Assembly (NCBI RefSeq): GCF_016026235.1
Contig: NZ_CP065613.1
Length of the DNA: 64,000 bases
Strand: one strand, 5' to 3'
Source: Escherichia coli
Lineage (GTDB): Bacteria > Pseudomonadota > Gammaproteobacteria > Enterobacterales > Enterobacteriaceae
Below are positions 11,213 to 12,298 of this stretch, one piece after another (position 1 is the first letter of the stretch; every line of letters starts with the position of its first letter). A program made the position numbers and the translations under genes. The notes below the pieces were generated by a model, which saw only the letters and a program-made list of their open reading frames with translations, searched no databases and was not told the DNA's origin.

Positions 11213-11228
11213 AGGCAAACGTTTACCT
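11213..11228 (+). promoter_or_regulatory. PurR operator O1 in purR leader
   Basis: AGGCAAACGTTTACCT, near-perfect match to the PurR box palindrome (ACGCAAACGTTTGCGT type). Confidence 0.7.
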
Positions 11229-11272
11229 TGCGATTTTGCAGGAGCTGAAGTTAGGGTCTGGAGTGAAATGGA

Positions 11273-12298
11273 ATGGCAACAATAAAAGATGTAGCGAAAC
11301 GAGCAAACGTTTCCACTACAACTGTGTCACACGTAATCAACAAAACACGTTTCGTCGCTGAAGAAACGCGCAACGCCGTGTGGGCAGCGATTAAAGAATT
11401 ACACTACTCCCCTAGCGCGGTGGCGCGTAGCCTGAAGGTTAACCACACCAAGTCTATCGGTTTGCTGGCGACCAGCAGCGAAGCGGCCTATTTTGCCGAG
11501 ATCATTGAAGCGGTTGAAAAAAATTGCTTCCAGAAAGGTTACACCCTGATTCTGGGTAATGCGTGGAACAATCTTGAGAAACAGCGGGCTTATCTGTCGA
11601 TGATGGCGCAAAAACGCGTCGATGGTCTGCTGGTGATGTGTTCTGAGTACCCAGAGCCGTTGCTGGCGATGCTGGAAGAGTATCGCCATATCCCAATGGT
11701 GGTGATGGACTGGGGTGAAGCAAAAGCTGACTTCACCGATGCGGTCATTGATAACGCGTTCGAAGGCGGCTACATGGCCGGGCGTTATCTGATTGAACGC
11801 GGTCACCGCGAAATCGGCGTCATCCCCGGCCCGCTGGAACGTAACACCGGCGCAGGCCGCCTTGCCGGTTTTATGAAGGCGATGGAAGAAGCGATGATCA
11901 AGGTGCCGGAAAGCTGGATTGTTCAGGGTGACTTTGAACCCGAATCTGGTTATCGCGCCATGCAGCAAATACTGTCGCAGCCGCATCGCCCTACTGCCGT
12001 CTTCTGTGGTGGCGATATCATGGCAATGGGCGCACTTTGTGCTGCTGATGAAATGGGTCTGCGCGTCCCGCAGGATGTTTCGCTGATCGGTTATGATAAC
12101 GTGCGCAACGCCCGCTATTTTACGCCGGCGCTAACCACGATCCACCAGCCAAAAGATTCGCTGGGTGAAACAGCGTTCAACATGCTGTTGGATCGTATCG
12201 TCAACAAACGTGAAGAACCGCAGTCCATTGAAGTGCATCCGCGCTTGATTGAACGCCGCTCCGTGGCTGACGGCCCGTTCCGCGACTATCGTCGTTAA
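11273..12298 (+). CDS. purR: Purine repressor (LacI family)
   Basis: 341 aa ORF with N-terminal LacI-type HTH ([23 protein letters not shown]). Confidence 0.95.
11301..11316 (+). promoter_or_regulatory. PurR operator O2 inside purR coding sequence
   Basis: GAGCAAACGTTTCCAC, second PurR-box-like palindrome ~30 bp into the ORF. Confidence 0.6.

Follow-up and report, generated by a model that had tools for sequence, protein, structure and literature searches.

Can one stretch of DNA encode part of a DNA-binding domain and at the same time be the operator to which that domain binds? The question is raised by the 5' end of a gene in a 64-kb segment of Escherichia coli DNA (hereafter the window, that is, the whole stretch of 64,000 nucleotides that was analysed), where two related 16-bp palindromes lie 88 bp apart, one upstream of a start codon and the other inside the reading frame that follows. 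Operators within genes form a rare class, accounting for less than 1% of sites. A sequence-only reading of the region had taken the two palindromes for PurR boxes, one in the purR leader and one about 30 bp into the coding sequence, and had seen in them both the known autoregulation of purR by downstream operators and a coding sequence that doubles as an operator. Here we examine the identity of the two sites, the other proteins or transcripts that they might serve, the selection acting on them and the way in which they may repress purR.

The purR locus

The only long open reading frame here, as given by the open reading frame listing, encodes 341 amino acids plus a stop codon. Over its whole length the encoded protein fits the NCBIfam PurR equivalog, and the score given in Table 1 is to be compared with a cut-off of 501 bits. 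The gene order annotated in complete E. coli genomes is cydH - purR - punR, with purR as the RefSeq name, and the 1.5-kb purR region occurs at an identity of at least 95% in 5424 of 5426 complete E. coli genomes. In K-12 MG1655, purR starts at 1737844 (NC_000913.3). Around the two palindromes, K-12 and the window are collinear over 601 nt with two substitutions and no indels, and neither operator contains a substitution. The locus is E. coli purR from a non-K-12 strain. The ribosome-binding site of the gene is well preserved, as GGAGT is unchanged in 12 of 12 aligned Enterobacterales sequences.

At the other end of the gene, purR and the convergent punR overlap by their stop codons in the sequence TTAA (12295-12298). 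The published end of the purR transcript, K-12 position 1738908, corresponds to position 12337 of the window and lies 5 nt past a GC-rich hairpin (approximately 12307-12332), which is without a T-run and falls within the 3' end of the punR coding sequence.

Table 1. Features of the purR region, with positions in the window and the evidence for each.
Feature	Position	Strand	Evidence or remark
Probable -35 hexamer TTCCCC	11081..11086	+	17 nt upstream of the -10 hexamer; conserved block
Probable -10 hexamer CAAAAT	11104..11109	+	-12 to -7 from the transcription start site; conserved
purR 5' untranslated leader, 157 nt	11116..11272	+	SMRT-Cappable-seq transcription start site (PMC6131387)
Operator O1, AGGCAAACGTTTACCT	11213..11228		+98 to +113; top PurR-matrix score; ChIP-chip motif; conservation
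purR ribosome-binding site GGAG	11260..11263	+	9 nt upstream of ATG
purR coding sequence	11273..12298	+	Open reading frame listing; PurR equivalog, 711 bits; RefSeq annotation
Operator O2, GAGCAAACGTTTCCAC	11301..11316		+186 to +201; weaker PUR box; PurR matrix; conservation; coordinates in the GalR study

The operator pair and the promoter

Both 16-mers are present where the sequence-only reading had put them. O1 occupies the nucleotides from 60 to 45 upstream of the purR ATG, in the untranslated leader. O2 begins 28 nt after the A of the ATG and covers nucleotides 29-44 of the coding sequence, in codons 10-15 (R-A-N-V-S-T), within the helix-turn-helix of PurR. As read from the sequence, seven of the eight symmetric pairs match in O1 and six of the eight in O2, so that both are imperfect palindromes; each is 16 bp long with a central CpG and fits the PUR box consensus ACGCAAACGTTTGCGT. 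They have in common the core GCAAACGTTT, which occurs twice in the 64 kb, at these two sites only, against 0.27 copies expected. The corresponding cores of K-12 are at 1737786 and 1737874, giving the 16-mers 1737784-1737799 (O1) and 1737872-1737887 (O2). The operators characterised by Rolfes & Zalkin in 1990 (J Bacteriol 172:5758) are identical to these in gene, in sequence and in position relative to the ATG, and according to its title that paper found autoregulation to require two control sites. We conclude, with a probability of roughly 90%, that the two 16-mers are the known purR operators O1 and O2. The pair is not new: it was characterised in 1990 and is curated in regulatory databases.

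The start of transcription places both operators downstream of the promoter. SMRT-Cappable-seq gives one purR (b1658) transcript in both data sets, running forward from 1737687 to 1738908 of NC_000913.3 (PMC6131387), and its start maps by collinearity to position 11116 of the window. At the appropriate distance from this start, the CAAAAT hexamer is kept in the 80 Enterobacteriaceae, and the more distant Enterobacterales in the alignment mostly have it too. The -35 element is probably the hexamer listed in Table 1, an assignment that draws on its position and conservation. A generic consensus promoter scan of 10950-11350 called no promoter. Both operators are clear of the promoter, and a search of 10975-11212 for a further PurR-like site near it found none, the best score being -2.6 bits.

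Published occupancy data point to the same two sites. In a PurR ChIP-chip study, purR shows a peak only with adenine, at 1,735,528-1,736,095 of U00096.2, which spans both O1 and O2 and, being about 570 bp wide, cannot separate one from the other. The motif listed for this peak, AGGTAAACGTTTGCCT at 1,735,808-1,735,823 of U00096.2, is the reverse complement of O1 at the corresponding K-12 position. A comparison with published operator positions had been suggested by the sequence-only reading, and the K-12 coordinates indeed agree with the tables of both the PurR and the GalR ChIP-chip studies. Together with the transcription start upstream of both sites, this bears out the view that purR is autoregulated through downstream operators.

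Matrix scores and the overlap with GalR

To score the sites, we used a PurR log-odds matrix made from 27 motif instances of the published PurR ChIP-chip table with purR left out, and the cut-off of that published analysis, P < 1e-4 per position. O1 has the best PurR-matrix score in the 64 kb, 21.5 bits with an exact P of 3.3e-8 per position, and outscores 21-24 of the 27 training sites when these are scored by leave-one-out. O2 reaches 10.4 bits on the published form of the matrix and 11.9 bits on the symmetrised one, with P of 2-3e-5, and no more than 2-3 of the 27 training sites score below it. Failure at a PurR weight-matrix threshold had been named beforehand as the result that would count against the two sites; both pass, O2 only modestly. 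O2 is a weak PurR site, and the matrix alone would not single it out genome-wide. Extrapolating from its P value, a genome of this size would contain by chance roughly a couple of hundred sites that reach its score. We accept O2 because it lies so close to O1, is conserved and is described in the literature, not because of the matrix alone.

PurR footprints on the purR operators have reportedly been obtained, with an affinity about six-fold higher for O1 than for O2, and with non-cooperative binding to the two sites. Autoregulation of purR is said to be two- to three-fold and to be reduced when O2 is disrupted by mutation. The weak matrix score of O2 is consistent with its reportedly lower affinity.

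A different protein might be the main user of these sites. O1 and O2, and O2 especially, could be mainly targets of GalR or of another LacI-family paralogue, for example RbsR, in which case purR would be tied to sugar status and PurR binding at O2 would be secondary. On the GalR matrix, O2 scores 14.4 bits (P 4.5e-6), which is tied for the best in the window and is better than its score on the PurR matrix, and its right half, CGTTTCCAC, is GalR-like. By ChIP-chip and qPCR, GalR binds ynhF/purR in vivo; the study lists both 15-mers under ynhF/purR, places O2 at 1737872-1737887, catalogues it as a GalR gene-regulatory site and notes that the PurR operators and the GalR sites overlap (Front Mol Biosci 2016;3:74). 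The GalR regulon sites at ynhF/purR and the purR operators are the same two DNA sites, of which O2 fits the GalR matrix and O1 does so poorly. However, the same study reports little or no GalR-dependent expression change for these genes. O1 scores 10.5 bits on the GalR matrix, under all 17 GalR training sites, and yet it is a top-tier PurR site; moreover, in 44 of 80 species O2 begins with GCGC and reads GCGCAAACGTTTCCAC, a form that scores 14.5 bits and is nearer the PurR consensus, and the ChIP-chip peak of PurR at purR is adenine-dependent. Still, GalR or a different member of the LacI family could account for some of the selective constraint on O2 described below. Taken together, we consider it unlikely that the sites serve mainly GalR or a paralogue. 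GalR is better seen as an added layer than as an alternative to PurR, and the assignment of O1 and O2 as PurR operators is compatible with GalR binding.

Two other sites in the window came up in the same scans. The sequence GTGATACCGGTTACG at 59943-59957 on the minus strand has 14.4 bits on the GalR matrix, level with O2 as the best of the window. The second-best PurR-matrix score in the window, 18.65 bits, belongs to AGTAAATCGTTTGCGT at 43107-43122 on the plus strand, in the divergent intergenic region of ydiJ and ydiK. It is identical in K-12 (NC_000913.3 1768894-1768909) and falls within a published PurR ChIP-chip peak, 'ydiJ/ydiK', for which no motif is listed.

The antisense transcript of cydH

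Rfam family RF02081 (STnc550, 'Enterobacterial sRNA') matches 10882-11272 on the minus strand over its full length with 394.5 bits. The match contains the open reading frame of cydH (ynhF), lies antisense to the purR leader and to O1, and has its 5' end adjoining the purR ATG. Its consensus structure shows the palindrome of O1 as a hairpin on the opposite strand.

This arrangement allows for another function, in which O2, together with O1 downstream of it, would also or mainly control a leftward promoter of cydH (ynhF)/STnc550 inside the first purR codons, with O2 overlapping the -35 element. If the 5' end of STnc550 that abuts the purR ATG is genuine, purR codons 1-12 would contain the promoter, and O2 its -35. 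The minus strand has TATTGT (11284-11279) at -12 to -7 of 11272 and, 16 nt upstream of it, TTGCTC (11306-11301) within O2. A ynhF transcript with an RNase G-trimmed leader has been reported, and the motif under a MarA/RamA ChIP-seq peak of Salmonella labelled 'purR<>ynhF' falls next to O2, in purR codons 6-11. However, of the 12 positions in the two hexamers only 7 match, and no promoter was called by the scan. Conservation of the putative -10 is lacking as well, for 66 of the 80 species have ATT as codon 4 and hence AATTGT as the hexamer. The STnc550 boundary in Rfam falls on that of an annotation and need not reflect a mapped 5' end, and a conserved extended -10-like sequence, TGTAAAAAT, can be read nearer to cydH. 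We find control of such a leftward promoter as the additional or main role of O2 decidedly unlikely.

Several further observations concern this region. The SMRT-Cappable-seq tables hold no entry for cydH (PMC6131387). The E. coli counterpart of the Salmonella motif, GCTCGTTTCGCTACA at 11290-11304 on the minus strand, abuts O2; the motif itself, GCCCGTTTCGCTACA, lies under the MarA/RamA peak with a weak motif P-value of 6.9e-4. Within the leader, a block of about 58 nt (11133-11190, +18 to +75) is conserved across the 80 species as strongly as the operators and includes a weak hairpin plus a T-run at 11152-11176. Its role could be in the purR leader or in the cydH transcript on the opposite strand.

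Conservation of the operators and synonymous constraint

We compared 80 purR loci, one per species and all from Enterobacteriaceae, with protein identities of 92-100% and nucleotide identities in the coding sequence of 82-94%. The core of O1 is intact in 78 of the 80 species, where it stands 57-60 nt upstream of the ATG, and the median score is 21 bits. In the footprint of the 80 species, O1 is a conserved island between variable leader flanks. The pattern xxGCAAACGTTTCCAC of O2 is likewise found in 78 of 80. Both operators exceed the surrounding sequence in conservation, as is expected of a PUR box. The spacing of O1 and O2 ranges from 85 to 88 bp among species and is not helically phased.

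Conservation inside a gene may simply follow from the protein, and O2 might be a by-product of encoding Ala-Asn-Val-Ser, with no operator function and with only O1 mattering. Such a reading has in its favour the weak PurR-matrix score of O2 and the conservation of the peptide itself (KRANVSTT in 79 of 80 species), and also an Asn12 lineage (L093, with KKANVS) in which O2 has decayed to 1.4 bits and O1 is kept at 17 bits. The third codon positions, however, tell otherwise. In codons 11-14 they are near-invariant, with GCA in 79, AAC in 80, GTT in 80 and TCC in 79 of the 80 species. The mean third-position entropy of these four codons (GCA AAC GTT TCC) is 0.048 bits, the lowest of 319 four-codon windows, compared with a gene mean of 1.00 bit over the 322 analysable codons. 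The comparison is not inflated by relatedness, because all codons share one species tree. As a control, we took eight orthologues with Gly12, in which O2 is absent: the third positions of their codons 11-14 vary freely. Constraint on the protein cannot explain near-invariant synonymous positions, and therefore the DNA of O2 has been selected beyond the needs of the protein. The synonymous-site analysis, to which the title of the 1990 paper with its two control sites may be added, led us to reject chance or coding by-product as the origin of O2, which we regard as very improbable. The claim that this coding sequence also carries an operator is in this way upheld by selection on its silent positions.

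A last explanation of the conservation, by mRNA structure, has the self-complementary 8-mer AAACGUUU in the cores of O1 and O2 pair with its other copy or fold locally round the ribosome-binding site so as to control translation, and, in spite of that 8-mer and of the hairpin that the STnc550 consensus shows at O1 on the opposite strand, it was rejected as extremely improbable, for the folds of 11205-11325 and 11130-11330 are no more stable than shuffled sequences (z of +0.18 and -0.68), pairing of O1 with O2 is absent from the minimum-energy and centroid structures, and at most eight A/U-rich pairs could form, with mismatched flanks.

O2 and residue 12 of PurR

The codons of O2 include one position at which PurR proteins differ. 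We compared 120 PurR homologues of at least 79% identity at residue 12. All 20 homologues of at least 89% identity have Ala-Asn-Val-Ser, and 96 of the 120, all of at most 85% identity, have Ala-Gly-Val-Ser, as does an RbsR-like paralogue. The homologues with Gly12 include those of Erwinia, Pantoea, Mixta, Yersinia, Providencia, Xenorhabdus, Hafnia, Pectobacterium and Serratia, from the families Erwiniaceae, Yersiniaceae, Morganellaceae, Hafniaceae and Pectobacteriaceae, in which the turn glycine of the LacI family is kept. In eight Gly12 orthologues, the 16-mer equivalent to O2 scores between -0.5 and -23 bits; the equivalent of O1 is weak in five of them (9.4-13 bits, e.g., AGGCAAACGATTAACA) and below 8 bits in the other three. 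A further sequence, L091/P0116, was considered as a distant orthologue with Asn12 and was rejected, its 80% identity being partly a frameshift-like artefact.

Among the loci examined, O2 is seen only where residue 12 is Asn (AAC; 11306-11308 in the window) and not where it is Gly (GGN), and the KKANVS lineage has Asn12 with a decayed O2. Asn12 is necessary but not sufficient for O2. The core GCA-AAC-GTT needs the Asn codon, and O2 is therefore a derived feature, which coincides with the change from Gly12 to Asn as well as with a stronger O1. In line with this, a review states that autoregulation is not conserved among PurR-bearing bacteria.

The co-occurrence of Asn12 and O2 is an observation. 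What may lie behind it is a more speculative matter: as a tentative proposal, which we think may be true but would not expect to be, O2 exists only through the Gly12-to-Asn change in Enterobacteriaceae, so that the need for an operator shaped the very domain that reads it, and O1 and O2 may in addition co-regulate the divergent, antisense transcript of cydH (STnc550).

A model for repression of purR

PurR, a repressor of the LacI family, is described as a dimer of 38-kDa subunits, with hypoxanthine and guanine as corepressors. In the model that we favour, a PurR dimer carrying hypoxanthine or guanine would bind to each of the two 16-bp imperfect palindromes. Since O1 and O2 are well downstream of the transcription start site, they cannot block the binding of polymerase at the promoter. 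Instead, each bound dimer would by itself be a leaky roadblock to the elongating polymerase, and the two roadblocks together would bring about a modest negative autoregulation of purR. The DNA of O2 would have two jobs in this model, encoding Arg10-Thr15 of the helix-turn-helix and being bound by that same domain. Repression of purR is probably exerted by such an elongation roadblock, a mechanism which we infer here and which has, to our knowledge, been demonstrated for purB and not for purR. Judging from the dimeric state of PurR and the unphased spacing, the two operators would act independently of each other.

Promoter occlusion and phased looping are both unlikely, because the sites are downstream, PurR is dimeric, there is no promoter-proximal partner and the spacing drifts. 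A looping or cooperative model was rejected, as there is no third site, the repressor is dimeric and the distance between O1 and O2 varies among species.

Comparison with known systems

The purR O2 is an example of the rare intragenic operators of the LacI family, and our analysis leaves the knowledge of the purR system unchanged. The dual use of O2 leaves a clear signature in the gene, namely the strongest synonymous-site constraint in purR. What may be called mildly new is the comparative evidence, that is, the synonymous constraint and the coincidence of Gly12Asn with O2, together with a possible link to cydH; the rest was known. The coincidence of Gly12Asn and O2 could interest students of overlapping codes and of the evolution of autoregulation.

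Like purR O2, lacO2 in lacZ and gal OI in galE are LacI-family operators that lie in coding sequence downstream of the promoter. Whereas these act through DNA loops with an operator near the promoter, which are formed by a tetrameric repressor or by the HU-assisted pairing of GalR, PurR is a dimer, and the purR sites lack the partner, the oligomerisation and the phasing of looping auxiliary operators of the lac O2 or gal OI type. A closer likeness is to the purB operator, which shares with purR O2 the repressor, the PUR box, the intragenic location and a position far downstream of the start; at purB, PurR is reported to repress elongation by a transcriptional roadblock at this intragenic operator (He & Zalkin 1992). 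The two genes differ in that purR, for which we infer the roadblock, combines a site in the leader with a site in the coding sequence, whereas purB has a single intragenic site, at which the roadblock has been demonstrated.
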